Positions 1,546 to 60,985 of a DNA stretch of 64,000 nt are shown here, one piece after another; the stretch's first letter is position 1, and every line of letters begins with the position of its first letter. The notes beneath the pieces were generated by a model. It did not search any database. It worked only from the letters and a program-made list of their open reading frames with translations, and was not told where the DNA came from. The DNA lies in the NCBI RefSeq assembly GCF_037042905.1, contig NC_087250.1, forward strand, positions 8,682,001-8,746,000, given 5' to 3'. The translations under genes and the position numbers were made by a program. Origin of the DNA: Lytechinus pictus (Eukaryota).

Positions 1546-4500
1546 TTATTCAGAATTGTATTTGCGTGTCATAAATTTTTTAAAGGATGATTTGAATGAG
1601 TTAAGAGAGGGACATTGTTTTAAGTATTGTGGTAAGGAATTCCAGGTATCTGGTCCATGATGGCGAACTGATTTTTGAGCAAGAATAAGTTTGGGGTTGT
1701 GTAGATGATAATCAGAAGAGTGGCGAGTTGGATATGCATGTATATTTGAATTTAAATTGAATAGATTTTGGAATAATGATGGAAGATTATTGTAAGTGTA
1801 TCTAAACATAAATATACCTGTTTGTAGAGTGTGAATATCCTGTATTTTAAGTGCATTTAAACGCTGAAATAGAGGTTCTGTGTGGGAAATATAATGCGAA
1901 TGAGTAACGTTACGAATTGCTCGTTTTTGGAGAAGTAGAAGAGAGTTTATTTTCGTTATACTACAGTTACCCCATACAATATTGCAATACATCATATGTG
2001 AAAGTACTAGGGAGTTGTATAGAACCAATAATGATTTTTCAGAAAGAAAGTCTTTTAATTTGTAAATTATTCCTATGTTTCTTGATATAGATGTATGTAC
2101 ATTGTGTATGTGGTCATTCCACGTTAGATTGGAGTCAATTGTTACTCCCAAGAATTTGGTAGAGTGCTTTTCAGTAAGAGGTAAACCGTCAATTGATAAA
2201 TTGGGAGCTGGTAAGTGTGGATTAGCTTCTCGAAAGTGTATAAAATTGGTTTTGCTTATGTTAAGTGAAAGTTTGTTTGTTTTAAACCATTGGGATATTT
2301 TAGAGAGTTCTGAATTAAGAATATGAGTTAGAGTATCTAAATTAGCATGGGAATAGAAAATACTGGTATCGTCGGCAAAAATTATGAAATTTAGAATTGG
2401 GGATGAATTTATGATATCATTAATATAGATAATAAAAAGTAGGGGTCCCAGAATTGATCCCTGTGGTACGCCGCACTTGATATTTTGTTTTTGTGAGTTT
2501 TGAGATTGGAAATGTACGTATTGTTGTCGATTATGTAAATAGTCTTCAAACCAGGATAGTGCTTGTCCCCTTATTCCATATGACTTTAATTTATGAATTA
2601 ATATTTTGTGGTCGATTGTATCGAAAGCTTTCGAAAGATCCATGTAAATTCCAATCGCATGTTCCTTTCTGGTGAAAGCTTCAATAATTTTGTCGTACAT
2701 ATATAATAAGGCATAATCTGTTGAGTGTCCTTCTCTAAAACCGAACTGATTAGGAATAAGAATATCATTGTTTTTCAGAAAAGTAAAGAGTCGTTTATAA
2801 ATAATTTTTTCAATAATTTTAGATATTGATGGTAGTAAAGATATGGGCCTGTAATTGCTGATTAAGGAGGAATCTTCTTTTTTATAAATTGGTATTACTT
2901 TTGCGAGTTTCAGGGAATCCGGGCATTTGCCTGTTGAAAGAGATAGATTAAATATATTGGATAGTGGATGAGCAATGTAATGAATAATTTGTTTAAGCAA
3001 ATAAACACTAATTCCGTCATGCCCACAAGACTTGCTAGATTTCAGTTGTTGAACAATATTAATTATTTCAAGTTCATTAGTTGGTCTTAAAAAGAGTGAG
3101 TTTTCACATGCTGGAGATAGGAATTTAGTGAAATGTGAATCATTTACATGAATGTTTGAGGCCAGATTGGGACCTACATTAGTGAAATAATCATTGAATG
3201 CATTTGAAATTGTTTCTGGGTTAGTAATTTCTTGACCATCAACATTAAAACTATTTGCAATATCATGTTTTTTCTTACCTAAGAGATCGTTGACAGTTTT
3301 CCATAAAAAAGTAACATTATTTGCGTTTTCCTCTATATTTTTTGAATAGTACAGTTTTCGAGATAGACGAATAATGGATGTCAATTTATTTCTATATTTT
3401 TTGTATTTGTCAAATTTTACCTTACATTGAGTTTTTAGAGCTTGCTTATAGAGTTTATTCCGTGTTGATATTGATCGTTTAATGCCCTTTGTGATCCATG
3501 GTTGTTTATTCTTTTTAAGGACCTTATCTTTTACAAGAGGTATGTTTTTGTTGTAATAATGTAAGAGTTTTTGAATAAATATTTCATAAGCAACATCGGC
3601 GTTAGTTTCGTTCAATACTTCATTCCAATCTTCTTCAGCTAAATCAGTTTTTAGTGCATCGATGTTGCGTTGGGTTTCTTTTCTGTGCATTTCTTTTTTG
3701 TTTTTATTTGTATGTTGTTGAATTTTAGCTTGATTAGAAATAACAAATATAGGTAAATGGTCCGAAATGTCAGAATAAATTATGCCATTTATGAAGTTTT
3801 TGTTAGTTACATTTGAAATGATATTGTCAATGAGGGTTTTAGACGTACTTGATATTCGTGTCGGATTACTAATATGCGGGTGGAAAGAGTATGAAAGCAA
3901 TGAGCTAATAAATTTTAGAGTGTAATTATTGTCAGTATTAATAAGATTAATGTTATAATCTCCCATTATGTAAATGTCTTTATTTTCCCGAGAAATAAAA
4001 CTAAGACATTGATCGAGCTTATCTAAAAACAAATCAATGTCACCATTTGGGGGTCTGTACACATTACCTACGATTATGTTTTTATTTTTACTGTTTAAAA
4101 TTTCAATGAAAATATCCTCCGTGCCTTGGATATGTATATCTGCCCTTACTTTAAAATGTATATCATTGCGCGTGTACAAGGCAACGCCACCCCCTTTACC
4201 ATGCTCACGGTCAGAACGAATCATTTGATAATTATCAATGTTAAATAGAGGTGGTGAGTTTTTGTGCAGCCAAGTTTCTGATATACCGATAATAGAGAAG
4301 GGGTAATTGTTAATATTGGAAAGGAGTAATTCAATCGAATCAAATGATTTATTTAAACTTCTAGCGTTGATGTGCAAAAAACCTAAAGAATGACTAGACA
4401 AAATATGATTTTGGTCACTAGCAATGCTGTTAAAAGATGTGTTGGTTTCGGTTGTAGTAACATAATCATTCGGTGAAAAGTTGAATTTATTATTAAAATC

Positions 4501-4572
4501 TTCTATTGTGAAATATTTACTTTCTGAGTCTATCATGTCTTGGTCATGCATGCTTTCGTCACGAGGTATCAT
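1546..4572 (-). CDS. LINE ORF2: apurinic endonuclease + reverse transcriptase (1008 aa, intact)
   Basis: APE motifs INARSL, GISETWL, VYRPP, GDYN and SDHLP. RT motifs YRPISLL, QFGFR, DLSKAFD, GVPQGSILGP, FADDT and KFLGV. Confidence 0.95.
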   Translation of the reverse strand: MIPRDESMHDQDMIDSESKYFTIEDFNNKFNFSPNDYVTTTETNTSFNSIASDQNHILSSHSLGFLHINARSLNKSFDSIELLLSNINNYPFSIIGISETWLHKNSPPLFNIDNYQMIRSDREHGKGGGVALYTRNDIHFKVRADIHIQGTEDIFIEILNSKNKNIIVGNVYRPPNGDIDLFLDKLDQCLSFISRENKDIYIMGDYNINLINTDNNYTLKFISSLLSYSFHPHISNPTRISSTSKTLIDNIISNVTNKNFINGIIYSDISDHLPIFVISNQAKIQQHTNKNKKEMHRKETQRNIDALKTDLAEEDWNEVLNETNADVAYEIFIQKLLHYYNKNIPLVKDKVLKKNKQPWITKGIKRSISTRNKLYKQALKTQCKVKFDKYKKYRNKLTSIIRLSRKLYYSKNIEENANNVTFLWKTVNDLLGKKKHDIANSFNVDGQEITNPETISNAFNDYFTNVGPNLASNIHVNDSHFTKFLSPACENSLFLRPTNELEIINIVQQLKSSKSCGHDGISVYLLKQIIHYIAHPLSNIFNLSLSTGKCPDSLKLAKVIPIYKKEDSSLISNYRPISLLPSISKIIEKIIYKRLFTFLKNNDILIPNQFGFREGHSTDYALLYMYDKIIEAFTRKEHAIGIYMDLSKAFDTIDHKILIHKLKSYGIRGQALSWFEDYLHNRQQYVHFQSQNSQKQNIKCGVPQGSILGPLLFIIYINDIINSSPILNFIIFADDTSIFYSHANLDTLTHILNSELSKISQWFKTNKLSLNISKTNFIHFREANPHLPAPNLSIDGLPLTEKHSTKFLGVTIDSNLTWNDHIHNVHTSISRNIGIIYKLKDFLSEKSLLVLYNSLVLSHMMYCNIVWGNCSITKINSLLLLQKRAIRNVTHSHYISHTEPLFQRLNALKIQDIHTLQTGIFMFRYTYNNLPSLFQNLFNLNSNIHAYPTRHSSDYHLHNPKLILAQKSVRHHGPDTWNSLPQYLKQCPSLNSFKSSFKKFMTRKYNSE

Positions 4573-17039: not shown

Positions 17040-18047
17040 AGGACAAGTCCACCACAACAAATCATTTATTTGAATAAAAATCTAACAAGCACAACACTGA
17101 AAATTTCATCAAAATCGGATGTAAAATAAAGTTATGACATTTTAAAGTTGTACTTGATTTCACAAAACAGTTATATGCACATCTTATTCGGTATGTAAAT
17201 GAGGAGACTTGATGACGTCATCCACTTACTATTTCTTTGGTATTTTATTATATGAAATATGGCATATTCTAATTTTTTCCTCATTGTCAAGTGAAACAAC
17301 AGTTAATTACTCCCTGAACATGTGGAATTAACATTGTTTAATACTATATGGTTCAGTCAAGTTAGTCCTTATTGTCAATCTATCAAAAAATGAAATATTG
17401 TATAATTCAAACAATACAAAACAAAAGAAATGAGTGAAGAACATCATCGACTGGCTAATTTACATGTCACTGAATAAGCCTGTTCACGGTTGTAAACTGC
17501 GCACGAGCAGAAAAAGGTCATTGGAGACAACCATGAAGGTGGCTTTCAAATTCACTGACATAGGCATTTGTGATTTGATGATTATTCATGTATTCCTTTC
17601 AAAATATTTATCACATCCAAGCTGAAGAGTAATAAATAGAGCCTTCATAATCACTGGTATTTGACAGTAGCCTAAACAATAGTCAAATGTGCCAAAGGTA
17701 GACAATAAAACAGATTTCCAAACTTTATCCCTGATGTACTATTCTAGTCATCTGGTCTATACAATGCCTTTTGTTCTTAGAATTTGAATACTCTACCGGT
17801 AAAGCTTACGCAACATCTACATTTGAAATTGATAGTGCTTATCCTAATGAAAAATCACAAAGGTCATTGGAGAAAAGTTGATCATGAGCTAACCGTGAAC
17901 TGGCTTATTGTGCATACACTGTTTTGTGAAAAATAAGCGATAACTTTTTTATTTTACATCCGATTTTGATGAAATTTTCAGCGTTATGCTAGTTTGATTT
18001 TTCTCAATTTATTAAAATCAACCTTTTTTCTGGGGTGGACTTGACCT
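17040..18047. mobile_element. Kolobok-like MITE (AGGACAAGTCCAC family) with a nested MITE at ~17475-17906
   Basis: TTAA TSD and TIR AGGACAAGTCCACC/GGTGGACTTGACCT. A second copy at 57048 lacks the insert, which has its own TIR AAGCCTGTTCACGGTT/AACCGTGAACTGGCTT. Confidence 0.8.
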
Positions 18048-22236: not shown

Positions 22237-22511
22237 TCAAATTTGGGTCGAATCTTTATTGGGTCGAATCTTCATCTCGCTCATCTTGAAAGAGTACCTT
22301 TTTTCCCCAGAGCTCCACACGACACCGTTACCGAAAGCATGGTAATAAGTGTCTCGGTTCTGACCATGTACATACTTCCCGTTGAGATTAGATATAATGC
22401 AGTTTTTGAACCACCACCCTGACCTGTATAAGCGTCCACAATGATACCCAAGGTTATTCTTGCAGTCTGGTGTGCTAAACGCGTTGCCGTTGTGATAACT
22501 AAGGCCGTTTC
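22237..22511 (-). CDS. Fibrinogen-related domain protein (ficolin/MFAP4/tenascin-like), last exon
   Basis: Acceptor TTCAG, phase 1. Reads GNGLSYHNGNAFSTPDCKNNLGYHCGRLYRSGWWFKNCIISNLNGKY...GVVW...SFKMSEMKIRPNKDSTQI*. Confidence 0.9.
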
Positions 22512-23912
22512 CTGAAGAAAAAAAAAGCAGAACAGAATTAGAATAAAAATGTTGTGTTCATAACTGTGGATGACAAACCTTTATAACTCATCTTTCCTTG
22601 ACTTGCAATATTAAATCCTCATATTTTTATATTTGCAAGTTTACTCAAGTCGTATCTCTTTACATGTCTACTTGTACTTTATTATTGTTTAGTTACATTT
22701 TCGTGCTATGGTCATAAAGGTATGCCTATTGCATTTTGAGGAGTGCGTTGCATGCATGAGTGATTCCATTGTTCAGTTCAGCTTATGGTCAAGAGTTTTA
22801 ACATTATTATCTCAGGAGTGATTCCCTTTTTTTTAAATAAATAAAACAATTAAATATAGACTCTCTGAAAAAAATGGCACTCGCTGATTACAGTGAATGG
22901 CACATTAAGAGTTGATATATAGGCCTACATGGATATTTTTATCAACCATTGGAATTGAGCCAGGAGGCTTTGTGTCACATTTTCTTTTTCTTTTGCCACT
23001 GACGTTCCAATGGTTGATATATTTTGTCTTGTATTGTTTATACTGGAATGTGTTGTTCCTTATAATTTCTTCGCCGAAAACATTTTTTTCATATTTATGT
23101 ATTCTTTGCCGAAAACATGAAATAAAGATGATAGCAATAGCAGAATAAATGAAACCATTCCTTTTCTTCCATGTATTTTTGGAATATTTTGTAATATTGG
23201 GGTTTTCCCACTTTATTTTAAGTTTAAATACCTGTAGCTGTAAATGCCAGCCGACACGCCTTCTTTTTGGTCAGGAATAAGTATGCTGAAGACTAAAGCC
23301 CATTTAACAGATGCAAGAATGCAACGCGGATCAGCACGAATCCTAGTCTAGATCTGGACGCTAGTAGTTATTTGTTCGAAATACCCTACACTCACTCATC
23401 GCACACAGCTACACACACACCCACATACTCACCCCCCCTCCCACACACCGTCTTTTCACTTGCTTATAGCGACTAAAGCTGCCAGATTATTTATGAACTA
23501 AGTTGAAAAAATGATAATTTCCATGAAAAATCAGGTGTTTCCTGAACGATGCTAAATATACATTGCGTACAGGGAGACAGGGAATATGTAACGTAGGACC
23601 TATTGACAAGAAAAATAATAAATTCAAGCACGAGAACGAGGCGAGAAAGCTTAATTTCAGAGAGTCTTTTTTTCCTTTTTGTATTTTGAGATAAACATTA
23701 TAAAGGATTACGTGGGTGTACGTTTGGACCATGAATACTAATGAAATATTCATGGGCGGAGAGCGTAATTTCAAACCAATTGCAGTTAAGATAACTCAAT
23801 AAAACTTTTTTGATTTTGAGACAATCAGGCAATTAAGACTTTGAAAAATAAAACACGTCCAATATTGGTAGTTTAATTCAAAGCCTCCAAAACAGAGTTA
23901 GCCCTTATCATA

Positions 23913-24217: not shown

Positions 24218-24482
24218 AGAGAGTTTTCGCAAGCACGACGCGGATGCCCTCTACATCAACGCACCGAATGCAAGTCAAAGTTGCACCGGACGAAAAATTC
24301 CAATATGTCGTTGTCCAGAGTCGGGAGACGATGACGCTGCTGTCCCGGTCCACCAACTTTCGACAAATGCATCTTTAGCTCTTCATTGTGATTCGAGTCA
24401 AATCATTTGACGTGCATTTTTAAAGAATTTGGCCGGTGCGTTGTATCATAGAGCGACCGCGCAGTGATTGCGAAAACGCTCT
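24218..24482. mobile_element. MITE directly adjoining the FReD exon donor site
   Basis: TIR AGAGAGTTTTCGCAA/TTGCGAAAACGCTCT. It ends about 7 nt from the GT donor at 24489. Confidence 0.6.
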
Positions 24483-24489
24483 GTAATAC

Positions 24490-24751
24490 CTGCGGTACCG
24501 GAATAACCGCTGGCGGTCAGGCTGAAGTGTAATGTTTCATTGCCAATGTGAAAGAAGCCGTAATTTGCGTATCGAGTATTCCCTTCGAAGCCTGCCAGAT
24601 CAACCCGCAGTTCGTAATTCCTCTGACTCGACAGTCGATGAATCATATCGTTGCCAAGCCAGTGCTCGGACGCGACACTTCCAAAACCGATCTTGTAGTC
24701 AGACCAGTTTCGGTTGAAATCCTCAGAACCATCTCTTCTACGTTGGAAAAC
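24490..24751 (-). CDS. Fibrinogen-related domain protein, middle exon
   Basis: CAG acceptor and GTATT donor. Reads VFQRRRDGSEDFNRNWSDYKIGFG...EHWLGND...LRVDL...GYSGTAG. Phases match the neighbouring exons. Confidence 0.92.
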
Positions 24752-26323
24752 CTGTTTTGTTTCGGAATGAAAGACAGTCATCAAAATTTACAAATGTACA
24801 TCAAAATAATGACGGCCCTATAGAAGATAGTTTCCGATGTTTCGTATAGGCCTATCGCAGTTCCATCAAATAATAGTTTTCCGTTTTCTCACTGTTTCGG
24901 AGGAAAATTTAGGGTATGACCTACATTCGGAATTGGAGACAGAGTTATAAATAAATAATTGACCTTGAAATTTATATTGTAAGGTTTGAACATCATGAGA
25001 ATGACACTGTCAGACGTTGAAGTAACGTCGTCATGATGCAGGTGCAAATTTTTCTAAGACTTTGATGAAACGTTATGAGAATAGCTGCAGCTAGCCTAGA
25101 CCACGTTCAACGTTGAAAGATGTAAATAATTGTTGACTTGATGATGCATGCGCGTGCACTTCTATTGATGATTCAAAGTTGTACCAACGATTTATTTATT
25201 ATCTCCGTATGGTAGAAAACTAGTGAAAATTTTGAAGGAGAAATAATTACGCTATATAGCTAAAAATGACCTACGTTTCTTGAAAATGACTGAAAATAAC
25301 CATAGTCCCATGCACGCACAATCAACAAGCACCCTCAAAGAGAAGTGAACGTGTAGAATAACGGAAAGTACGTTCAATGGATAGTACTCATTGAAAATAA
25401 ACCGAGTATTATACGGCAAATGAGTGGTTCTATGACATCTGCTCCGGCGACAATATTGCTCCGATGGAAAATCAATCTGCACGTTATTAAGCCAAACATA
25501 TAGGCTAAGCTAACCTCTAAAACAAAACAAACCCTAATCCTTATTATTTACATAGTTCTGAACCAAAATGTATATATCTGTCGTGTTGGGATCGGCAATT
25601 ATAATTTAGAAGGGAAGCGTAATGAAGAAACTTCGGAGAAAGTGATACAGTTCAAAATCACAGGGTATTTAATCATCAGTATTCAGCCACAGTTCGAAGT
25701 ACATGAAGGTTCAGATAAAACAGGAGACGGTGAATATAATTATTTCAAAGTATAAGATTAAATTCTGAAGTTAGACTAATATTGGATGGACGTCTAAGTC
25801 TTGAAGTCGGTCAATCTATATGGATGAGTGTGGGTCTAGTATTATACTTTATATCTTTTCTGATAATCAAGAAGTCTTATTTATATCATTAGTTTTGGGG
25901 TGTAACAATTTAAGGTGGGAGTGATCTCTAAACTTGATCTGATTGGTCTACAGGTAACTGTCTATCAAACTTTATATGGTAGAAGGGATGTGGTGATGCT
26001 CTGTGCAAGTGACTGGGGCTGGAAGTGTGGGTCATACGTCTTAGAACTTTTGCTCCTTGAAGTTAGCTGACGTCACTGAGGGTTGGTCTTTTACGCTCAA
26101 AGTTTAGGAGTTAAATGGTAATGGGGGTTTAGGAGTTCTTAGATGACATTGGGGGAGTTTGTAAACAAGTGAAGGTGAATGACTGAAAGGATAACAGGAA
26201 GTTAAATCTATACTACATAACATAACAATCCTAAATCCGACCCAATATGCCCTCTTAGATATTAAAACCGGAGCAAATGACGCTGAAGAAAATGTCGTGT
26301 CACCGGTAAGGTTTTCCACTTAC

Positions 26324-29094: not shown

Positions 29095-29130
<36 letters not shown>

Positions 29131-29297
29131 GGAGAATGAAACCCTTGAAACCAGCTGAATCCATATGAAAGAGAAAAATCAAAGAAACATATTGTTGAAA
29201 GTTTGAGGAAGATTGAATTAATAATAAGAAAGTTATGAGCATTTGAATATTGAGATCACTAGTGCCATGTAGATCCTCCCATCGGCAATGCGACCAA

Positions 29298-31185
29298 GTA
29301 TAACCTTTCTCCCTCTGAAAGACAAGCTCTCCGTGAACTTAAAGAAAACAAGAATGTTATTATCAAACGAGCTGACAAAGGGTCAGCAGTGGTATTTCAA
29401 TCTAAACAGAACTATCTTTCTGAAGGCCATAGACAATTGAACACGGAGACATATAGGAAAACTGAGAGTGATCCTAACAAAGAGCATTTGAATCAAGTGA
29501 AAAAAGTAGTAAATGACATAAAGGTCCCAAAAGACATCAAGCAATTACTGATCCCTATCAAATCGGAATGCCCACAAATGTATTTTTTGCCCAAAATACA
29601 TAAATTGGGCAATCCAGGAAGACCGATTGTTTCCGGATGTTCTTGCCCTACTGTTCAAATATCTCGCTTTCTCGACACAGTATTGCGTCCATTGGTACAA
29701 CATACTAAGTCTTTCATACAAGACACAACACACTTTCTGAAACATATCTCCAAAATAAACTCAGAGGGCCCAATTCCTAATGGGATATTCTTGGTCTCAG
29801 CCGACGTCAAATCCCTGTATACCAACATTCCCCATGCAGATGGTATCCAAGCCTGTAAGAAAGCTCTTGAAAAACGGAGATCGAAAGATCCCCCTACTTG
29901 TGATATGGTTCGATTACTTGAACTAATTCTGAAGTTGAACAACTTTCAGTTTGCAGGGGAATTCTACATTCAGAACCAAGGAACGGCCATGGGCACTCCA
30001 GTTGCACCCTCTTATGCCAATATCTTTATGGCAGACTTAGAAGAGAAACTCCTCTCCTCAGTCTCACAACAGCCTTACAGATCATCCTGGTGTAGATACA
30101 TTGACGATATTAATTTTCTCTGGTCTGGAAACAGGGAGTCTCTTGACCAATTTATCCAAGCTGCCAATTCATTCCATCCAACAATCAAATTCACGTTTGA
30201 AACATCTAACTCTCAAGTTTCCTTCCTTGATGTTCTACTTTACATGAAAGAGAACGTTCTACAAACTTCTCTCTACTCCAAACCGACGGACACCCATGCT
30301 TATCTTCTTCCCGATTCATCTCACCCACACCATGTTTTCAATAGCATTCCTTATAGCCAGTCAATCCGAATAAGGCGCATTTGTTCCGAAGAAGCCAACT
30401 TTGAATCTAGTATCGCAGATCTGCAAGAACATCTCCAGAAACGTAATTACAATCCCCATTCAGTGAGCAAAGCCATCAACAAGGCTAAAGAAATCCCTCG
30501 GGATAACCTCTTACATTATAAGAAGAAAGACAAAACAATGAAGAGAACACCTCTTGTGCTCACCTATCACCCCAACCTGCGTAAAGTTGCCCAAATTGCT
30601 CGCAAACACATGGACATTCTTCATCAATCTGAAGTGACAAAGGAAATATTTCCAGAACCGCCCCTTATCGCATTTAGACGATGCCGCTCTCTTCAAGACT
30701 TATTAGTATCGTCCCGTGTTTCAGTCAACTCTGAAAACAATCAGAGTGAACACATGGGCTCATCCAAATGCGAAGCTAAGAAATGTTGTATCTGTCCATT
30801 CATGTTGAACACTAAATATTTCGTAAGCACAGTAACAGGAGAGAAATTCCCAATTACTCAGCAAATCAATTGCAAATCTTCATGGGTATTATATCTCATT
30901 ACTTGCAAACGCTGCAACAAACAGTATGTCGGGAAGACTACTAATACACTGTACACAAGAATGTGCAACACACGATCAGACATAAAGAAATATCACACGA
31001 GTAGACGCAAGGAAATCCCAATTGCTGCCCACTTCAGTTCTGATAATCATTCCACAGATGATATTCAAATTGTAGGAATAGAACTTATCAGAAAACAGCA
31101 TGAATCAATCATACTCAAACGAGAGTCATATTGGATTCTGAAACTTAAGACACTTGTACCAAACGGCATCAATGTAGAAGAATAG
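29298..31185 (+). CDS. Penelope-like retroelement ORF (5'-truncated): RT + Cys-rich linker + GIY-YIG endonuclease
   Basis: The frame is open from 29298 (YNLSPSERQALRELK...IIKRADKGSAVV). RT motifs LPKIHK, GRPIVS, DVKSLYTNIP, GTAMG and RYIDD. Linker C-x4-C-x2-C...C. GIY-YIG region VLYLITCKRCNKQYVGKT...R...E..WI..L.T..PNGIN. Confidence 0.93.
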
Positions 31186-31210
31186 ATATTTCTAATTAAC
31201 CTCAATCGTG

Positions 31211-32334
31211 GGTCACATTTGTTACATCAGTGTCACTAATTAAATGATTAAATTATTTTTAATACTTATTGTTATGTATTTGTTAGGTGATTTCTAGATG
31301 ACCCAAGCTTGAGAAGTGAGACTTTTGGTCATTACGCGAATTATCAACAATTTTATTTATAATCTTTACTCAATTTGATTTCAAAATTTATATCGTTTCA
31401 TAGAGATTTAATTTATATGCTTGTAAGAAACAATGTTTTCGTCATCATCCTCCAGCTTACGATATCTAATATCATGAATATTCATACTCATTGTGACATA
31501 AATTATATGCGCATTACCAATGCGCTTTGCGCTTTCATCACCTAGCAACCAATGTTTTCTTTTGCAATTTTTGCCACTTTCCTAAAGAACGAGATAGGAT
31601 ACGGTCATACTTAACTATCACAATAGTCTGTAATTACAGGTATGTCTTTTTGATTTATATCATTATTATTTTAATTGAATTAATTATTTATTATTCATTA
31701 ATTTATTTATCTGTTCATTCATTAATTTGTCATTATGGAATATATTCAACTTGGTGATAATTCATTGATGTGCATGGTCACATTTGTTACATCAGTGTCA
31801 CTAATTAAATGATTTTTTTAATACTTATTGTTATGTATTTGTTAGGTGCTTTCTAGATGACCCAAGCTTGAGAAGTGAGACTTTTGGTCATTACGCGAAT
31901 TATCAACAATTTTATTTATAATGTTTACTCGATTTGATTTCAAAAATTTATATCGTTTCATAGAGATTTGATTACTATGCTTGTAAGAAACAATGTTTTC
32001 GTCATCATCCTCCAGCTTACGATATCTAATATCATGAATATTCATACTCATTGTGACATAAATTTTATGCGCATTACCAATGCGCTTTGCGCTTTCACCA
32101 CCTAGCAACCAATGTTTTCTTTTTGCAATTTTTGCCACTTTCCTAAAGAACGAGATAGGATACGGTCATACTTAACTATCACAATAGTCTGTAATTACAG
32201 GTATGTCTTTTTCATTTATATCATTATTATTTTAATTGAATTAATTATTTATTATTCATTACTTTATTTATCTGTTCATTCATTAATTTGTCATTATGGA
32301 ATATATTCAACTTGGTGATAATTCATTGATGTGC
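31211..32334 (+). repeat. Two near-identical tandem 565-bp repeats in the PLE 3' region
   Basis: Units start GGTCACATTTGTTACATCAG at 31211 and 31776. Confidence 0.92.
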
Positions 32335-32375
32335 AAAACAAACTTGGATGTTGTATCTCCTTATATTTTTCAGAC

Positions 32376-32415
32376 GCTTCTGACGAAGTCTCAATTAAAA
32401 GACGAAAGCTAAAGC
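32376..32415 (+). ncRNA. Minimal type I hammerhead ribozyme in the PLE 3' terminal region
   Basis: GCUU-CUGACGA-A-GUCU(caauuaaa)AGAC-GAAA-GC-UA-AAGC: catalytic core, stem II, palindromic AGCU stem III and stem I GCUU/AAGC. Confidence 0.75.
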
Positions 32416-32518
32416 AAATAATGGTGTCCTGCGTCATCTGTTGAGTTGGCCTCGCCTCATCTCATTATGTTTAATATTCACAACTCAACAGCGATTGGTA
32501 GAAGTAAACTTATCATCA

Positions 32519-32554
<36 letters not shown>

Positions 32555-32596
32555 GAGATCAAGTGTATGGAGAGGGCCGTAGCAATACCCGTCTTC

Positions 32597-32630
32597 ATCA
32601 AGCTTTCGGGCAGATGCCCTTCATCAGGAT
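32597..32630 (-). ncRNA. Minimal type I hammerhead ribozyme (inverted copy)
   Basis: The minus strand reads AUC-CUGAUGA-A-GGGCA-UC-UGCCC-GAAA-GC-UU-GAU. Confidence 0.65.
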
Positions 32631-32665
32631 CTAAACCAATATATAAATTTTATATATTGGTTTAG

Positions 32666-32699
32666 ATCCTGATGAAGGGCATGTGCCCGAAAGCTTGAT
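32666..32699 (+). ncRNA. Minimal type I hammerhead ribozyme
   Basis: AUC-CUGAUGA-A-GGGCA-UG-UGCCC-GAAA-GC-UU-GAU, with a palindromic AAGCUU stem III. Confidence 0.65.
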
Positions 32700-33041
32700 G
32701 AAGACAGGTATTGACCTTGCTACGGCCCTCTCCATACACTTGATCTCGAATATAATTATGAAGGAGACCCGTACACGTACATCGCCAAGATTGATCACAC
32801 TTATATATACAAATGTGTAAAGTTATACATGTACAACAGCTTTGGCAACTCTTTTTATTTAAATATTGTAAAGAAATGGATGAAGAGAACAATGGTAGGC
32901 GTAGCTTAAATCAAGGTTCCCAGAGCTATCTACCCTTTGGAAAAATTGGTGATGCCGAAAAAATGTCTTTGCCGGGAATCGAACCCGGGCCCCCAGCTAT
33001 CTGACGGTCAATCGGATCGGGGTCGCCTTAGCCACTAACCC

Positions 33042-33113
33042 GTCTCTGTGGTCTAGTGGTTAAGGCACCGGCGTTCAAAGCTGGGGGCCCGGGTTCGATT
33101 CCCGGCAGAGACA
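33042..33113 (+). tRNA. tRNA-like gene, anticodon TCA (opal-suppressor type, short variable arm)
   Basis: Acceptor GTCTCTG/CAGAGAC, D stem GTCT/AGGC, anticodon stem CCGGC/GCTGG with loop GT-TCA-AA, variable GGGC, T arm CCGGG-TTCGATT-CCCGG. A and B boxes are intact and a T9 run follows immediately. Confidence 0.7.
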
Positions 33114-33436
33114 TTTTTTTTTCGGCATCACCAATTTTTCCAAAGGGTAGATAGCTCTGGGAACCTTGATTTAAGCTACGCCTACCATTGTTCTCTTCAT
33201 CCATTTCTTTACAATATTTAAATAAAAAGAGTTGCCAAAGCTGTTGTACATGTATAACTTTACACATTTGTATACGTTCCCCCTACGTGTACTGTATCAA
33301 AGCAATAGCTTTGATCCAGCTGAAGCATGGCGGCTTGTCATTGTTCGAAACCCACCTTCACCCGACAAAGGAAATTATAATTGGTATAGTGTCGAAAATT
33401 TGTCTATCGGATCGGGGTTGCCCTAGTCACTAACCC

Positions 33437-33508
33437 GTCTCTGTGGTCTAGTGGTTAAGGCACCGGCGTTCAAAGCTGGGGGCCCGGGTTCGATTCCCGG
33501 CAGAGACA
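33437..33508 (+). tRNA. Second identical tRNA-like gene, anticodon TCA
   Basis: Identical 72-nt sequence 395 bp downstream, followed by T6. Confidence 0.7.
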
Positions 33509-33604
33509 TTTTTTCGGCATCACCAATTTTTCCAAAGGGTAGATAGCTCTGGGAACCTTGATTTAAGCTACGCCTACCATTGTTCTCTTCATCCATTTCT
33601 TTAC

Positions 33605-33645
<41 letters not shown>

Positions 33646-36464
33646 AAGGGTGTGTGTGAGTGAGTGTATTTTTCTCCAATATAACACCCTAAGTCTGGGA
33701 CATCTTCTGCAAAGTAACTCATGTACTGATCGGGATTTTTCGCAATTGCAGATTCTGCAACGTTGTAAATCTATTGAACATGCAAGTCAATACACGTGAC
33801 ACCTGAGAGGTTTTTGTCAAAAGATTGTGAACTGGGACAGCAGATCGTCCTAAGATTGCGACCTGGCGAAAAATTGTAAAGAGTCCAGGACGGCACTGTT
33901 GTTTTGATTCACCTGTTTTCGATAAATGAACTGGCCAATAAAGATCAATGTTACACGCGTATTTTGTTTAATATACTGACCAGGAAGAGTGGTTCTTTCA
34001 TATTTGCAATTCATCGCAATTAAAACATTTGTGTTACGGAGCCCAGTTTTCGACTAAGCCTGCTTTTGACAATGGATTCTCTGCGTTTCAGAAGGCGTCT
34101 GCGTAGTGCTTGCGAAAACTCCATATTAACAGCAATTTCCTTACCGGTTTCACAAAATTTTCGTTGAACAGGTATAGACTTATTTCCAGGCTTTCCAAAA
34201 GACCGTGTGCCATCGACATGGTATTTGACCCTCTGATGTATTATCTTTTCACCCTGAACGACTGGTTGACAACTATCTTGACTTCCTCGTCCAGCAGATG
34301 TCCAACCTACAGATAATCCGATAGTAGTATGGTAAAGGGGTACGTTGCAAACAAAACTTGCAATCAATTGTTAGCCAAGTCGAAAATTGACGAGCCATTA
34401 TAGCATTAATATAGCGCTTATCACATCTTTATCAGCGGAGCGTTTCATAAAAGAACTTGTAGGACGTTTTATCCGACACGTCCGTTTTATCCGACAGTTA
34501 CCATAGTAACAGTGACATTTAGCTGATAAGTTGTCAGATATTGAAACTTTCTGGACAAAAAATTTGATGAAACGCTTCTCAGAAGTCTTTAAGCGCTCTG
34601 GAATGGCATATATTTAGTAAAACAAATATAATGAACAGTAAAATAAAAAAAAATAGGTGAGTATAAGATCTTTTTAATATTCTGATGATAAATAATTTAG
34701 ACCTTGGTGTTACTCTGTGCTAAAATCATGGGAAGCCAACGTTTCAAAATTTTGTTTACAGTGAATGCTTCTCATGTCTACCTCTTTACTAATTATTTAA
34801 TGGTGAAGACAATTGTCATATATCCTTCCCAGGCGGGTTAATAATGTTTTGGGAGTCAAATGAGCTAATACATTGAACCTCTACTGTTAGAGATATATGT
34901 AACAACTGGCTTTCCATAGTTTAACCACAGCTTAAAACCAGAGTTTAAATTAAACCCGACTCCAGATTACGCGCCTATGTGTTTATCACACCTGGAGTTC
35001 ACAATGTCTGGTCAATAAGATACATAATCCATTTTAAGAAGATTAAATGGCGCTAGTTGTTTTCAAGTCAGCATACAACAAATATATATATTTTTCATCG
35101 CGCTTCGTGGCTTTATTATTTTATCTACTGTCATACGCATTTTTTTCATAATTGCCTAAAGTGATTTGCACCTTTCAAAGTCTGAACATTAAAACAAAAT
35201 GTTCAGTCAGTGCTTCGCGTTCTCATTAGTGGATTGATGGAATATGAAAGCTTTTCATGAATTACTATTAACAGTCATCGAAATTTTTCTGTTGTGGTCT
35301 GCATATGAAATTATTTCAGCTCGCTTCTCGCGCTAGCATTATTGGATTAATCAAATATGTGCGTGTACGAACTTCATAAATTCCTTCAAACAGTCCTTAA
35401 AATAACATCTTTTCAGGCCTAAATATGACGAAATTTCAGCTCGCGCTTCGCGCACGCAAAATTTAATAAATGGGATACGTATCATGTTTGTTTTTACAAA
35501 AAGTTCTTAAATTTCCTGTATTTATGTTTATATTTAGATTTAAAAAATAGCCCGCACTTCCCGCTCGAATTATTTGAATGTGAGATATCGTTGCTCTTCA
35601 TAAATTCCTAAAAAGAGTCCTTAAAATGTAGATTTGTAGACATATATATGTAGACTTTTGAGATATATATCATTTTGAGATATATGTATTATTATACATT
35701 TTGGGATAGATGTATTATACAGCACACATAACACAATATGTCTACATACTTTCAAAAAATAGTTTGTAATAAAAATCTGCGTAAACTTAATTGATTTTAA
35801 TACATGTAGCTATTGGATAATCCTAATTAAACATTACCGATGTAAAACATTTTCTTTAAAGATATACCTATATTTAGTAAATTAATCCAAATATATGCAT
35901 GGTAATTGTAAAGCCATTATGTCTTTTACAACTAAACAACTAAATGGCCGAAAGCTTGCACTAATAAAAGTTAAAGAAATCCAGGCTACGTCTCTAGCTT
36001 CAATGCTTTTTGAGCTTCTTCGCCAATATATTACTCACTGAAGCACCCACGCAATGTTTAGGTCCTTGCTCATCACAATTATATATATATATATAACCTT
36101 TTTCCAAAGCATGAAAAAATGCCGAAACTTTCAGGATACATTCATTATTTAAACCATTCGGATATCTAATCGCAATGTTTATAGGACAAATGCTCAATGA
36201 CTCTTATAAAAAAAAAAATCGCCGAGAAAGTGCGCTAAGATATTTAAAATTTGAATAATTCAAATTTTCACAGGGAAGTGACGGTTGGAAAAAAGATATA
36301 ACGGTCTTTACACTTTTGTAGCATTTGTATTTTACTCGATTATACAGTTCACGTTATTGGAAAAAAAATATTGACCATTTCCCAAAACTAAAAACAGGGT
36401 TAAAAGTTGTGAGGAAAATATAACATGTCAGAATATTGACCACTTTAAACACTATGATTATATA

Positions 36465-36811: not shown

Positions 36812-37201
36812 CACATGTGATGGTAAAATTGTCTAACTAGAAGATTAACAAGATCAGAAGATAGACCATTTTACCATCTTTGATGTATAGTATGAGTGTA
36901 TACAATCATGCGCTGTGGTTAAACAGCCTATCTGCACAAAAATAATCCCTCAAATAAGCACAACATTCTTCAGTTATTAGTGTTTCATATCCTTCTTCTT
37001 GCCCTATTGCTAGAGCGACATTGTAGGCCCCCTACCCGTCTCCTAGAAAAGCTCAAACCCCTAAACTACTCGTTTGTCTCAGAAGAGCGATTTTTGAGAC
37101 CGTTTCGAGGCCGTTTTACGGCCGACGGCTTACAGATGGTAAATCGGTCTAATTCAAAGATAGACCATTTTACCATCTCAGAGCAATGATTAATGATAAC
37201 C

Positions 37202-37465
37202 GCTGCGTTGGCTCAGTTGGTAGAGCGTCCGTCTCATAACCGGGAGGTCGGGGGTTCAAACCCCGGCCGCGCCAGACCAAAAGACGTTAAAAGATGGGAG
37301 TTTGTGCTACCCTGTTTGGCGTTCAACGATTAAAGGAATAGAGCCTCGTCGATCTGGCGCTGCACAGCGGCTGCCGGCCCCACGATCAATTGGGCAAAGC
37401 AAATTTTCGGAGTATTTCATTTCAAGTCTTTTTCGAACAATAAAATATTAATTTTCATTTTTTTA
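37202..37465 (+). mobile_element. tRNA-derived SINE (CAT-anticodon-like head)
   Basis: A box TGGCTCAGTTGG and B box GGTTCAAACC. The ~190-bp body is shared with the degraded copy at 11470-12167, and no terminator follows the tRNA part. Confidence 0.8.
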
Positions 37466-58621: not shown

Positions 58622-60739
58622 TTAAAGAGTTTGCAATAGCGTTCAAATTGGTCACAATCATAGCTAGTCACATAATTGCTATGACATCATTATGATTCTG
58701 GAATGAATTTGTTTTTATACTTATGAAGTATTCATATATGGCTTGTTATGAATTGATCTAATGCCAATTCGTCCAATTACCAACTCATCTACCATCAGCT
58801 CGTCTTCTATCTTCATGGTCTAATTGCCATTTCGTCCACTCACCATTTTGTCAAACAACCTGTTGGTCCACATACCCCGGGGAAGAACAGGTTGGTTATT
58901 AATAGCCAATCTGAAATGGGTCTATCCCTGCAATACATAATTTTGTATTACATGCATTGTTAAGTTTGATTATTGTTACATTGTTATATTGTATATAATT
59001 ATTTGATCGTGTAATGTTTATTTTGTTTATATTTATGTATTTTTTAAATCGTGAATAAAACCAAACCAAACCATACTATGTGGCTCAATTGGACTTGGTG
59101 TTAATTAGGTGAAATGACTGAAAAGAAAATGGGTTATGAGATGAAATGGTCATAGACTAACTGGTGATTAGACAGAGTGATGATTGGACCAATTGGTTAT
59201 TGGACCAAACGGTTGTTAGTCAAAATATAAATGGACGGAATGGCATAAGACTAGATGAAGGTAGACCATGTGCAGAGTGGACGTATTGGTAATAGATGAA
59301 TTGGCAATTTACCCAAGTCATATAACAATTCAGAACAGGGAGTCGTTTGTTCCATGATCAAATCATCTCATCAAAGACTTATTCCAGTTTTGGGTTGTAG
59401 GCCAATTAAAAGTTGGCCTTTATGCTTTGGGCTTTCATTCTGTCTGTCCCATTTTAGTTCTCTCGATAATGAAATGATGAATCATCTTCAAACATAGTCA
59501 AAGCATGCATGTCTGAGTGATGATGATCTAGTAGTTTTGGGGGTATCGAGGTTCAAGTCCAAAAGGTTGCGGGGGTCATTTATCTACCCGAAAAAAGGGA
59601 AACTTTGGCCCGTATTCTGAACTCGGGTTTAAATTAAACCCTGGCTTGAAGTTGTGGTTTAACAATAGAAAGCCAATTCGGGTACAAATTCCTAACAACT
59701 AACACTTTCAGTTTATTACCTCATATGACATCCAAATTGGTGATTGTCTGGGAATGATAACTTAAAGGGGAATCCAGCCTTGGCCATAAAATGTTGTGTT
59801 GGGAAGGAGAAAAATAAATTAAACAGAATGGTGAAAGTTTGAAAGAAATCGGACAAGCAATAAGAAAGTTATACATGTAGCTGCTTTAAAATTGAGATCA
59901 CTAATACTATGTAGATTTCAAATTGGCAACTGAGTAAGTAAATTATGACAAGGGGCAAGGACAACTTTCCCATAGGCCATGTACTTTATTATCAGGGATT
60001 TGTGGTTTTCTCCTAGTAAGTACCCATTCCCTGGGGCAGTAATCTAAATATAACCCAGGTAGTATATTGTTTTATGTCCTCATGAAAGAAAAATATAATG
60101 TGGAATAAAACTTTTGGAAAAAATGACATTTTAGCCATAATATGTATTGGAGTACATGGAAGAGTAGTCCTTGCCTTACATCACTATGACATCCCATATG
60201 CGGCCAATTTGAAGTCTCCATGGGTATAGTGATTACCAATATTTACAACATTTAAAAATTCATAACTTTCTTGTTGTTTGTGCAATATTGTTCAAACTTT
60301 CACCTATCAACTTGTCTGATTTTTCTCTTCCTTATAAAAACAAGTTTTTATTTGGGTTGGATTCCCCTTGAAGTATTTTTCTTCATTATGAATCAAAGCA
60401 AAAGGAAACAAAACAAAGTAAGCATAAGAAATATACAATATAAACAGAATTTTGAAGTGTTGGCTCTCCATAATCTTAGCACAGAGTAAGACTGTGGTCT
60501 TAGTTAAACCTGACTTCAGAATACGGGCCTCAGAGAATCTGATTTTCATTGATTTGATAATGATTTAGAAGAAAAAATATTTTGGCAATAACATGTATTG
60601 TTGCACTGCTCCATTTAATGACAGATCGAGTTGTCCTAATAGGCTTATCAAACATTGAGATTTAGGAAGACTACCACTAACTATTGCTGACTTAAAATCT
60701 TCAGGAATGTCAATTCTCTTGTGTTTCCCGCCTCTTCAG

Positions 60740-60985
60740 GACCTTGAAGCTATTTTAAACAGCGCCCTCTTAACCCTGGAGGCAGCATCCGAAGCAGCCT
60801 TCCAGGCCGGCAACGAGGAACTAGCCATGATGGGGCGAGACAGATGCCAGTACGTCAACACGCAGATCGCCCTGACTCGAGCCGTCATCCAGAAAGCGGA
60901 GACTGCTCTGGTGAAACTGCAAGCGGAGACTATCAAGGAGACCAAAACAGAGATGGAGGATGCAGATGCAGGCTCCTGTAAATAG
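60740..60985 (+). CDS. DIABLO: DIABLO/Smac-like, last coding exon
   Basis: EAASEAAFQAGNE...QKAETALVKLQAE aligns with human EMAAEAAYQTGAD...RKAETKLAEAQIE. Polypyrimidine CAG acceptor and TAG stop. Confidence 0.9.
   Translation, partial: DLEAILNSALLTLEAASEAAFQAGNEELAMMGRDRCQYVNTQIALTRAVIQKAETALVKLQAETIKETKTEMEDADAGSCK

Follow-up and report, generated by a model that had tools for sequence, protein, structure and literature searches.

A tRNA-like gene with a UCA anticodon inside an abundant tandem sea-urchin repeat that may insert in the manner of Penelope-like elements

In the window, i.e., the 64,000-nucleotide stretch of Lytechinus pictus DNA that was analysed, a complete tRNA-like gene with the anticodon UCA is part of a head-to-tail repeat of about 404 bp, which according to public reads represents a very abundant sea-urchin family. 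We consider it rather probable that the unit is a dispersed, tandem, non-autonomous repeat with a tRNA-derived polymerase III (Pol III) module and with an insertion in (TA)n sequence in the style of Penelope-like elements (PLEs). Each monomer comprises the tRNA-derived module and ~290 AT-rich bases after it; in the module, the decayed remnant of an antisense tRNA precedes an intact UCA cloverleaf in sense orientation, which contains A and B boxes and is followed by an oligo-T run. A PLE-type reverse transcriptase plus endonuclease would copy the unit in trans, the nicked (TA)n target priming at UAUA-like sites on a multimeric transcript, and this priming would give rise to the partial tandems with an inverted 5'-truncated copy that are the hallmark of PLEs. 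The tRNA module would be retained as a Pol III/TFIIIC-binding module and not for decoding, and UCA as its anticodon was most likely inherited by chance from a class-I tRNA ancestor.

Two tRNAs with the anticodon tca were called by ARAGORN on the plus strand at 33042 to 33113 and 33437 to 33508; they are identical to each other in the alignment, and the "SeC" label that both received is derived from the anticodon only. For each gene, the general tRNA model RF00005 of Rfam scored 60.9 bits (gathering score, 29; E value, 9.8e-11), and its alignment spans 1-71/71 in both with 0 non-standard pairs flagged. The alignment describes a full cloverleaf with an acceptor stem of 7 bp, a D stem of 4 bp, an anticodon stem of 5 bp (one G-U), a T stem of 5 bp, a 4-nt variable loop, and the anticodon loop G-U-UCA-A-A. 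The conserved positions U8, A14, G18-G19, and U33 and the T-loop UUCGA are all present, and the A and B boxes can be read off the alignment with their well-known consensus. Directly 3' of the discriminator A lies an oligo-T run, T9 at 33114 to 33122 (plus strand; Pol III terminator-like) and T6 at 33509 to 33514. The two identical 72-nt UCA cloverleaves with oligo-T reported in the preliminary description are confirmed. A 23-base piece of the tRNA is present twice in the window, compared to 0 expected from 100 shuffles. The Rfam alignment also confirms the G at position 32 that had been singled out as atypical; a pyrimidine is expected at this position, and G32 is very rare among working tRNAs. 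The context A36-A37-A38 is typical for tRNAs reading UNN codons, and we know of no standard animal isoacceptor with a matching acceptor stem. The anticodon registers UUC and CAA were rejected because the 5-bp anticodon stem breaks (checked by eye).

The array begins with an inverted, 5'-truncated copy, continues with one direct copy (copy 2), and closes with roughly one half of another copy in head-to-tail order (copy 3), which gives ~1.5 direct copies. Repeat search and alignment revealed spacings of 395 and 392 bp between the direct copies and identities of 96 to 97%. Of the 395-bp unit in direct and inverted copies that had been proposed, the arrangement is retained, but the usual period of the family is ~404 bp; the window spacing is explained by the loss of 12 nt from the copy 3 leader, combined with three additional T in copy 2. 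The inverted arm (32806 to 32998, minus strand), which was detected by the repeat search and by blastn of unit positions 81 to 276 against 32998 to 32806 (98%), is the reverse complement of 33079 to 33274, with 158 nt at 100% and 41 nt at 98% identity. It begins within the anticodon loop and contains the 3' half of the tRNA (32958 to 32998), an A6 run that reads T6 on the strand of the copy, and ~155 nt from further downstream, and its outer end abuts TA-rich sequence.

Copy 2 opens with a 43-nt leader (32999 to 33041, plus strand), the most variable block of the family, which is a decayed antisense copy of the tRNA without its 19-nt anticodon arm. The local alignment of the leader with the tRNA reverse complement scored 31, compared to a shuffle mean of 16.3, a score reached by 1 of 1,000 shuffles. 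Downstream of the tRNA and its T9 run, the rest of the monomer (33123 to 33401, plus strand) is AT-rich (GC content, 37.5% over 33114 to 33401), lacks a hammerhead core on either strand, and includes sites, AT-rich or of the ACACA type, at which other copies give way to microsatellites. Its ends pair in a predicted rod-like fold, for which the plus strand of the unit reaches -134.3 kcal/mol (z, -6.21). A possible compensatory pair in this predicted rod (33181 C>T and 33330 G>A) was not used as evidence, because the two changes are not linked by the reads. The leader of copy 3 (33402 to 33436, plus strand) is 12 nt below the family norm, and a loose end at 33399 as well as joints are located near it in family contigs. 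In the alignment of the two window copies, there are four differences in the leader versus 0/72 in the tRNA. The T6 run and downstream part of copy 3 (33509 to 33603, plus strand) end at the equivalent of 33211, where (TA)n starts, and a microsatellite of (TA)13 followed by (TG)n (33605 to 33650; TRF and sequence) marks the outer 3' end of the array.

The repeat family is easily recognized in sequencing runs. In DNA run X1, which may stem from the same sample as the window assembly, 8,327 contigs lie on 32999 to 33401 (2,652 with at least 99% identity, 3,042 with 95 to 99%, 2,101 with 90 to 95%, and 532 with less than 90%), and the notion of a private cassette at one locus is therefore abandoned. 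The summed word depth over the unit ranges from 0.09 to 1.3 million, contig depths not being equivalent to copy numbers. Joints that go back about 400 nt are represented in X1 by four listed rows (10 + 3 + 4 + 2 contigs) and in the RNA reads of run X21 by 42 + 55 and 59 + 53 reads; they also occur in X7, where one contig of 434 nt is a circular permutation implying a period of 404 nt. X7 and X14 are runs labelled with two other organisms, which are possibly close relatives. A further 865 contigs of X1 are only partly located on the unit, and the loose ends found in 44 contigs at 33210 and in 32 contigs at 33266 continue as TA-rich and (CA)n(TA)n stretches. The family is hence present in two forms, arrays in head-to-tail order and scattered pieces bounded by microsatellites; joints between tandem copies and a high depth are evident, the contigs are too short to show array length, and many of them run into other sequence. 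Microsatellite-bounded tandem arrays can also be the product of DNA-level recombination. Exact-pattern scans with pieces of the unit in metagenome, genome, and viral contig collections gave 0 matches. A mollusc origin, considered at first, was dropped, since 12 of the 13 named relatives of a fibrinogen-domain exon came from sea urchins (highest identity, 86%) and one from an oyster (54%).

Judged from the variants, the tRNA is better conserved than any other block of the family. Among 40 listed variant rows (36 further rows exist), one is located in the 72 nt of the tRNA (at 33109), 12 in the 43 nt of the leader, and 27 in the remaining 288 nt, which corresponds to a binomial P(<=1) of 0.0037 for the tRNA among the listed rows. 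The sole X7 contig and the longest X14 contig across the tRNA leave it unchanged, including UCA, and a second X14 contig of low depth has five other letters over part of it. The conservation of TCA among copies, which the preliminary description had proposed to examine, is thus supported by the least variable block of the unit and by the contigs of X7 and X14 that span it, and the distribution of variants also fits the earlier suggestion that a Pol III gene was kept as a promoter or signal. The following T run is more variable: T6 instead of T9 (33114 minus 3) was found in 45% of the X1 depth, in 405 of 629 X21 reads (64%), and in all X7 and X14 contigs over the place of 33114 to 33122.

Next to the array, a 5'-truncated PLE occupies 29127 to 32521 on the plus strand (Pfam, translations, repeat search, TRF, and motif scan). 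Its open reading frame (ORF; 29263 to 31185) has a DKG motif, a reverse transcriptase (RT), and, at the C terminus, a GIY-YIG domain; in the protein of 598 residues, whose best relative is 62% identical, Pfam located RT at 78 to 268 and GIY-YIG at 499 to 588. The 3' region of the PLE is tandemly duplicated with a spacing of ~561 bp, and (TA)n is present on both flanks. TRF detected (TA)n tracts at 29098 to 29126, 32522 to 32552, and 33605 to 33631, and a custom motif scan identified hammerhead cores at 32380 to 32407 (plus, within the PLE), 32604 to 32627 (minus), and 32669 to 32692 (plus), none of which was reported by Rfam in the window at an E value of <=1, even though the cores of the PLE are evident. 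The second and third cores belong to a separate inverted dimer with the shape of a long hairpin (32553 to 32759; repeat search and motif scan), which directly follows (TA)15 at 32522 to 32552 and carries one minimal core on each strand. Excerpts of PMC4209133 describe the minimal hammerheads of PLEs as having an unpaired base 5' of helix II and as occurring in opposite-strand pairs, and the two cores fit this description. The presence of a PLE, hammerheads, and (TA)n next to the unit, as noted beforehand, is accordingly supported by the Pfam ORF, the motif scan, and TRF.

According to excerpts of Craig (2021), PLE insertions form partial tandems with an inverted 5'-truncated copy and are biased towards (TA)n. 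In the array, a partial tandem is abutted on its 5' side by an inverted 5'-truncated copy. The outer 3' ends both point towards (TA)n, which is represented by (TA)13 on the right side and by TA-rich sequence on the left. Repeat search, TRF, and alignment, compared with these excerpts, thus sustain the claim of a tRNA gene internal to a repeated unit with a PLE-typical tandem-plus-inverted architecture in (TA)n. That the PLE, the inverted dimer with minimal hammerheads, and the unit all lie in one series of (TA)n tracts is a further argument for a PLE-type origin, and we infer from this setting that the unit depends on PLEs. The unit and the 3' end of the neighboring PLE share no sequence in blastn (word size, 9; E value, 1e-3), and CTGANGA is absent from both strands of 32999 to 33620 in the motif scan; the unit therefore lacks both of the traits by which known non-autonomous elements are connected with PLEs. 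The oligo-T after the tRNA would also halt Pol III ahead of the remaining unit, so that a simple SINE-like head promoter cannot explain the co-amplification of the monomer. A candidate hammerhead at 33320 to 33350 (CGAAAC in the window) was rejected because CTGANGA is lacking and because 33324 and 33347 differ from the window in nearly all of the family depth, the latter by a G>A change that makes the CGAAAC of the window atypical of the family. The 3' end of the tRNA was also discarded as a priming site of reverse transcription, since neither the array ends nor the 14 listed loose ends (455 more exist) are located at 33113; the two ends of the array correspond to 33211 and 33274, away from the tRNA borders.

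An alternative that we regard as unlikely is that of a plain satellite, or of a tandem carried by a Helitron, Helentron, or MITE, in which the tRNA is a passive passenger, arrays expand through unequal exchange or rolling-circle replication, and copies spread by microhomology at AT-rich or ACACA sites. The ~404-bp head-to-tail period and the very high summed depth would be expected of such a repeat, the break-offs at 33210 and 33266 resemble internal microsatellite seeds, a hammerhead and a shared PLE 3' end are lacking, and the identical 158-nt inverted arms could stem from a hairpin event at the DNA level; bivalve Helentrons and MITEs with tandem repeats are mentioned in excerpts of the literature. 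However, the combination of an inverted 5'-truncated copy and a partial tandem with outward 3' ends in (TA)n is specific for PLEs, three independent PLE-type items are located in common microsatellite tracts, and the selective conservation of the tRNA block would be unexpected for a passive passenger.

We attach little credence to a PLE-dependent retrozyme-like element in which the complete tRNA module replaces the hammerhead and tRNA-processing enzymes or Pol III/TFIIIC define the unit RNA, and still less to the specific version in which RNase P and RNase Z cut multimers into monomer templates for a PLE RT. Metazoan non-LTR retrozymes, as portrayed in excerpts of Cervera and de la Pena (2020; PMC7229834) and of bioRxiv 10.64898/2026.07.22.740005, are likewise AT-rich head-to-tail repeats of a few hundred bases with strongly self-paired RNA, are found alongside PLEs, and are proposed to depend on them; in excerpts of PMC7229834, they have monomers of 170 to 400 nt. 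The type-I hammerhead that defines them is missing on either strand of the unit, where a tRNA-like gene takes its place. This lack of a hammerhead, the matching monomer size and tandem order, the strongly self-paired plus strand, the constraint on the tRNA block, and the RNA reads across the monomer junction would all suit a tRNA-processed element. The reads stem from X21, the only run with raw reads and a cDNA library of a type that misses tRNAs. With 2,022 reads on it, the unit is transcribed or present in RNA libraries; mate orientations are about equal and 42% of the reads continue into unlike sequence, and they could partly represent genomic DNA or host read-through. Processing at the tRNA is disfavored by the smooth read depth over both of its borders, where no pile-up of molecule ends was reported, by the identical junction in the DNA, and by array ends that do not coincide with the tRNA borders. 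Moreover, folding predictions for long transcripts join the leader and the tRNA in a hairpin of -61.5 kcal/mol in copy 2 and -43.4 kcal/mol in copy 3 compared to -29.4 kcal/mol for the cloverleaf of either copy, which would lock the tRNA in leader-containing transcripts.

The UCA anticodon is shared with tRNA-Sec and with engineered or natural opal suppressors. Eukaryotic tRNA-Sec is characterized by a 9/4 acceptor/T helix, a long variable arm, and a 6-bp D stem. The gene of the array has the anticodon, but it lacks the extended helix, the long variable arm, and the 6-bp D stem; its 7/5 fold with a 4-bp D stem, a 4-nt variable loop, and discriminator A sets it apart, and from overlapping matches of the tRNA clan, Rfam retained RF00005. 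The previous exclusion of a canonical tRNA-Sec is thus substantiated. The frame at 29263 to 31185 has unchanged bounds irrespective of whether TGA is read as stop or as sense and contains 0 in-frame TGA, which confirms the earlier statement on the adjacent PLE ORF, and reading TGA as sense extends neither of the retroelement ORFs in the window (PLE and LINE). With RT first, GIY-YIG last, and a DKG motif, the neighboring PLE is not a Naiad with N-terminal endonuclease. According to excerpts of Craig (2021), the selenoproteins of Naiad depend on SECIS elements and the Sec-specific tRNA. The cassette supplying an opal-decoding tRNA to a Naiad-type selenoprotein element, as envisaged in the preliminary description, finds no support in view of the type of the PLE, the lack of TGA, and the tRNA fold, and a link to selenocysteine or Naiad is likewise not supported by these sequence comparisons. 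Decoding by the UCA tRNA in general is unlikely in view of G32, the very many copies, and the lack of a TGA-interrupted ORF nearby. That at least some copies serve the element or the host as functional opal-suppressor genes, with an amino acid placed at UGA codons, is accordingly a highly improbable reading: the perfect cloverleaf, the A and B boxes with an immediate terminator, the A36-A37-A38 context, and the preservation of UCA and the whole tRNA among copies, including the spanning contigs of X7 and X14, are what such genes would display, but thousands of expressed suppressors should harm the host, neither the PLE nor the LINE ORF offers a codon to be suppressed, and G32 and the acceptor stem are unlike those of working animal tRNAs familiar to us.

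The PLE-style, non-autonomous repeat that we favor has partial counterparts among known elements. Like tRNA-derived SINEs, it has a tRNA module with A and B boxes, a high copy number, a dispersed distribution, and probably an RT encoded elsewhere, but its tRNA is a complete cloverleaf internal to a tandem monomer, T6 to T9 bars Pol III from the body, a LINE-like tail or poly(A) is missing, and the insertions have the shape of those of PLEs. The Sm-alpha repeat of Schistosoma is similar in that it is SINE-like, is arranged in tandem, has a promoter of the Pol III type, and resides in a PLE-rich genome; it differs by an active hammerhead and the lack of a full tRNA with its own terminator. The TRIMp3 elements Cassandra, Helenus, and Ajax (PMC10886601) are also non-autonomous retroelements with captured small-RNA gene sequences, in which conservation is centered on the Pol III promoter boxes and a tRNA function is doubted by the author. 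They belong, however, to the LTR elements, have a primer-binding site as well as a polypurine tract, and show target-site duplications, whereas the unit has no LTRs, inserts in the tandem/inverted manner of PLEs, and keeps the whole cloverleaf intact and not the boxes alone. Satellites derived from SINEs, e.g., PcH-Sat from Nin-SINE (PMC11121367), are tandem repeats with part of a tRNA-related mobile element, but PcH-Sat lacks boxes A and B, and the tRNA of the unit is complete and its most conserved part. A literature search, with Repbase and Dfam outside its scope, returned no earlier account of any tandem element that bears a tRNA and has insertions of the PLE type.

Known modules from small-RNA genes are found in LINE-dependent SINEs and LTR-dependent TRIMs, and the unit, if correctly interpreted, would add the third big class of retroelements and represent a hammerhead-free counterpart of animal retrozymes. 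Should the retrozyme-like reading be true, a telomerase-related RT would copy the RNA of the unit into (TA)n sites, and a sea-urchin genome would harbor thousands of intact UCA tRNA genes, some of them perhaps expressed. If even some copies were transcribed and charged, they would impose a standing load of UGA suppression on the host, which would be surprising. For genome annotation, families of this kind give many high-scoring "selenocysteine" or "suppressor" tRNA calls, which should not be taken for evidence of recoding.

The repeat monomer of about 404 bp (32999-33401) is abundant, and an intact tRNA gene with the anticodon UCA is its most conserved part, a conclusion that is well supported. 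ARAGORN called two genes with the anticodon TCA (33042-33113 and 33437-33508) that show zero sequence differences, and both match the general tRNA model of Rfam in full length at 60.9 bits (E 9.8e-11; gathering score 29) with 0 non-standard pairs. The Rfam alignment gives an acceptor stem of 7 bp, a D stem of 4 bp, anticodon and T stems of 5 bp each, a variable loop of 4 nt, the anticodon loop G-U-UCA-A-A and the discriminator A, and runs of nine (gene 1) and six (gene 2) T follow directly 3' of the tRNA. For the tRNA alone, the cloverleaf (-29.6 kcal/mol) and the best fold computed (-30.4 kcal/mol; z -2.0) are about equal. The preliminary description of two identical UCA cloverleaves with adjoining oligo-T, embedded in direct and inverted unit copies, is thus borne out by these tools as well as by repeat search, blastn and alignment. 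A third call (37201-37273, plus strand; Met, anticodon CAT) scores only 35 bits in Rfam, its acceptor and anticodon stems hold several non-standard pairs, and it is probably a pseudogene or SINE head.

The size of the family was surveyed in four public sequencing runs compared with 32999-33401. The DNA run X1 holds 8,327 contigs on the unit (2,652, 3,042, 2,101 and 532 in successive likeness classes), with a summed word depth of 0.09 to 1.3 million that is not a copy number. Tandem joints that step back by 399-403 bases, about 6 letters intervening, occur in X1 (at least 19 contigs, four rows listed), in the RNA run X21 and in X7, where a 434-nt contig is a circular permutation of the unit and gives a period of 404 nt. 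The unit also occurs in X7 (1 contig) and X14 (29 contigs), whose labels name two other organisms. The single X7 contig and the longest of X14 have 1 other letter across leader and tRNA, the tRNA including UCA being unchanged, and a second X14 contig (33034-33096) of low depth (2.3) has 5 other letters; the labelled organisms may be close relatives.

Among the 40 best-supported of 76 variant rows (the 36 further, less-supported rows being outside the count), 12 fall in the leader (43 nt), 27 in the remaining 288 nt and 1 in the tRNA (72 nt), where an even spread would give 7.1 (binomial P(<=1) = 0.0037). This sole tRNA variant among the best 40, A>G at 33109, would keep a U-G pair, and the direct copies in the window have 4 differences in the leader and 0 in the tRNA. 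The anticodon and the rest of the tRNA alike are not free to vary, and the signal is that of the whole module. Conservation of TCA across copies, which the preliminary description proposed to test, was found, but it is not specific to the anticodon. We infer a role of the tRNA block from its conservation only.

The direct copies are spaced 395 and 392 bp apart at 96-97% identity, and an inverted third copy (32806-32998) starts inside the anticodon loop, its arms matching the direct copy over 158 nt at 100% and 41 nt at 98%; blastn found no other copies of the unit within the 64-kb window beyond this array. The spacing of 395 bp versus the period of 404 nt has two sources: the leader of copy 3, the head-to-tail partial copy, has lost 12 nt, and copy 2, which carries gene 1, has three additional T. 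The 43-nt stretch 5' of each tRNA is a decayed antisense tRNA without the anticodon arm (local alignment score 31; shuffle mean 16.3; reached by 1 of 1,000 shuffles), so that two tRNAs were already paired head to head in the monomer long ago, and the inverted copy in the window records a recent event of this type. The monomer is predicted to fold strongly on the plus strand (-134.3 kcal/mol, z -6.21; minus strand z -3.31), and its part behind the tRNA is predicted to be self-closing and rod-like. Two common variants, 33181 C>T and 33330 G>A, affect both partners of a single predicted base pair in the rod and would together change it from C-G to U-A. The predicted hairpin of leader and tRNA outweighs the cloverleaf in copy 2 (-61.5 versus -29.4 kcal/mol) and copy 3 (-43.4 versus -29.4 kcal/mol); because the leader is predicted to pair with the tRNA, the cloverleaf is expected only if transcription starts just 5' of the tRNA, as it would with Pol III.

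A mobile cassette that supplies an opal-decoding tRNA, as previously proposed with a link to Naiads and selenocysteine, is not supported. The frame of the neighboring Penelope-like element (PLE) contains no in-frame TGA, as the preliminary description had itself cautioned, and reading TGA as sense leaves the bounds of both the PLE and the LINE frames unchanged. The structural marks of tRNA-Sec, as generally known, are absent from the Rfam alignment of the tRNA, and given the size of the family the unit cannot be a cassette for one neighboring element. According to Craig et al. 2021, Naiads are PLEs with an N-terminal endonuclease that decode in-frame UGA as selenocysteine via a SECIS element and a Sec-specific tRNA; the domain order of the PLE in the window (Pfam) is the opposite, RT preceding a C-terminal GIY-YIG domain in the frame 29263-31185.

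The presence of the PLE, hammerheads and (TA)n tracts beside the unit was confirmed by motif scan, TRF and Pfam, in the order (TA)14, PLE, (TA)15, inverted hammerhead dimer, 46 nt, tRNA-unit array and (TA)13(TG)n. The PLE (29127-32521) is 5' truncated, has its 3' region in tandem duplicate at a spacing of about 561 bp and is flanked by (TA)n on either side. A scan of the 64 kb for CTGANGA, helix and GAAA found only three hammerhead cores, one in the PLE tail (32380-32407) and two (32604-32627 and 32669-32692) on opposite strands of a 200-nt hairpin, and none in the tRNA unit; no Rfam hammerhead matches were listed at E<=1. In these cores an unpaired base precedes helix II on its 5' side, and an opposite-strand pair is formed by two of the three; both traits fit the minimal PLE hammerheads characterized in PMC4209133. 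Located between (TA)15 and a TA-rich stretch, the hairpin (32553-32759) consists of two inverted minimal-hammerhead units and resembles a PLE-type insertion in its own right, that of a tiny non-autonomous element; in Rfam it has only weak matches to plant microRNA precursor models, far under the gathering scores.

PLE insertions are typically partial tandems, often with an inverted 5'-truncated copy at the 5' end, and insertion into microsatellites such as (TA)n applies to almost all families of the Hydra clade, commonly to Naiads and hypothetically to Neptune (Craig et al. 2021). The shape of the tRNA-unit array exactly matches the insertion pattern given there. The array terminates beside TA repeats, at positions equivalent to 33211 and 33274, and each of its outward-facing 3' ends falls on a UAUA-like site of the monomer. 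Loose ends of the same kinds are present in X1, where 865 contigs are only partly on the unit and the ends listed include 33210 (44 contigs) and 33266 (32 contigs), beyond which TA-rich or (CA)n(TA)n stretches follow. Array shape and 3' ends at UAUA-like sites beside TA repeats favor copying in trans, in which a PLE enzyme would have copied a multimeric transcript of the unit. Against this count the absence of a hammerhead from the unit and of any sequence common to the unit and the 3' end of the neighboring PLE (blastn), and for both reasons an origin of the array at the DNA level stays a serious rival to copying in trans.

Sm-alpha of schistosomes is counted among the nearest known kinds of element. 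The terminator immediately 3' of the tRNA block contradicts a simple role of the block as a SINE head, and the unit departs from tRNA-derived SINEs in both terminator and tail. Animal non-LTR retrozymes are alike in size, tandem form and PLE company, but their defining hammerhead is absent from the unit (PMC7229834; bioRxiv 10.64898/2026.07.22.740005). TRIMp3 elements (PMC10886601) correspond in the idea that a captured small-RNA gene is retained on account of its Pol III signals, but are members of another retroelement class. A tRNA-bearing tandem element with PLE-type insertions was not found in the literature searched, and Repbase or Dfam may already catalogue the family.

In about a quarter of X21, a cDNA RNA-seq run, 2,022 reads lie on the unit with about equal mate orientations; most are 90-95% like the window copy, and 42% continue into unlike sequence. 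Depth is smooth across both tRNA borders and the T run, and no sites with many molecule starts or ends were reported on the unit. The signal resembles transcripts reading through dispersed, diverged copies on either strand, or a share of genomic DNA, and is unlike a Pol III product, although a cDNA RNA-seq library cannot show RNA of tRNA size. The variant 33109 A>G reaches about 48% in X21 versus 0.4% in X1, and those at 33109, 33129, 33265 and 33020 together span 38-60% of RNA reads versus 0.4-8% in DNA contigs; a particular subfamily could be transcribed or individuals could differ, and no inference is drawn.

Directly 5' of the truncated PLE lies a repeat of about 110 nt (29167-29274) with nine further matches in the window (blastn, 71-77% identity). 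Apart from 17940-18005, these matches (8 of 9) are arranged as four inverted pairs with a spacing of about 520 bp (48013-48098/48426-48533, 51318-51427/51769-51840, 57086-57164/57536-57609 and 59803-59916/60246-60335), an arrangement like that of terminal inverted repeats in MITEs or foldback elements. On the minus strand, a seemingly intact LINE frame of 1,008 amino acids (1546-4572) has Exo_endo_phos and RT domains (Pfam), and two exons (22240-22557 and 24449-24787) belong to a gene with a fibrinogen C domain, ficolin/techylectin-like (Pfam). The latter exon has 21 relatives at E<=1e-20, the best named being from Lytechinus (86% identity); the 13 named ones are from Lytechinus (7), Strongylocentrotus (4), Diadema (1) and oyster (1, 54%). 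With 12 of these 13 coming from sea urchins, the window is taken as echinoid. An exon-sized frame on the plus strand (60659-60982) matches the Smac/DIABLO domain (E 2.4e-08).
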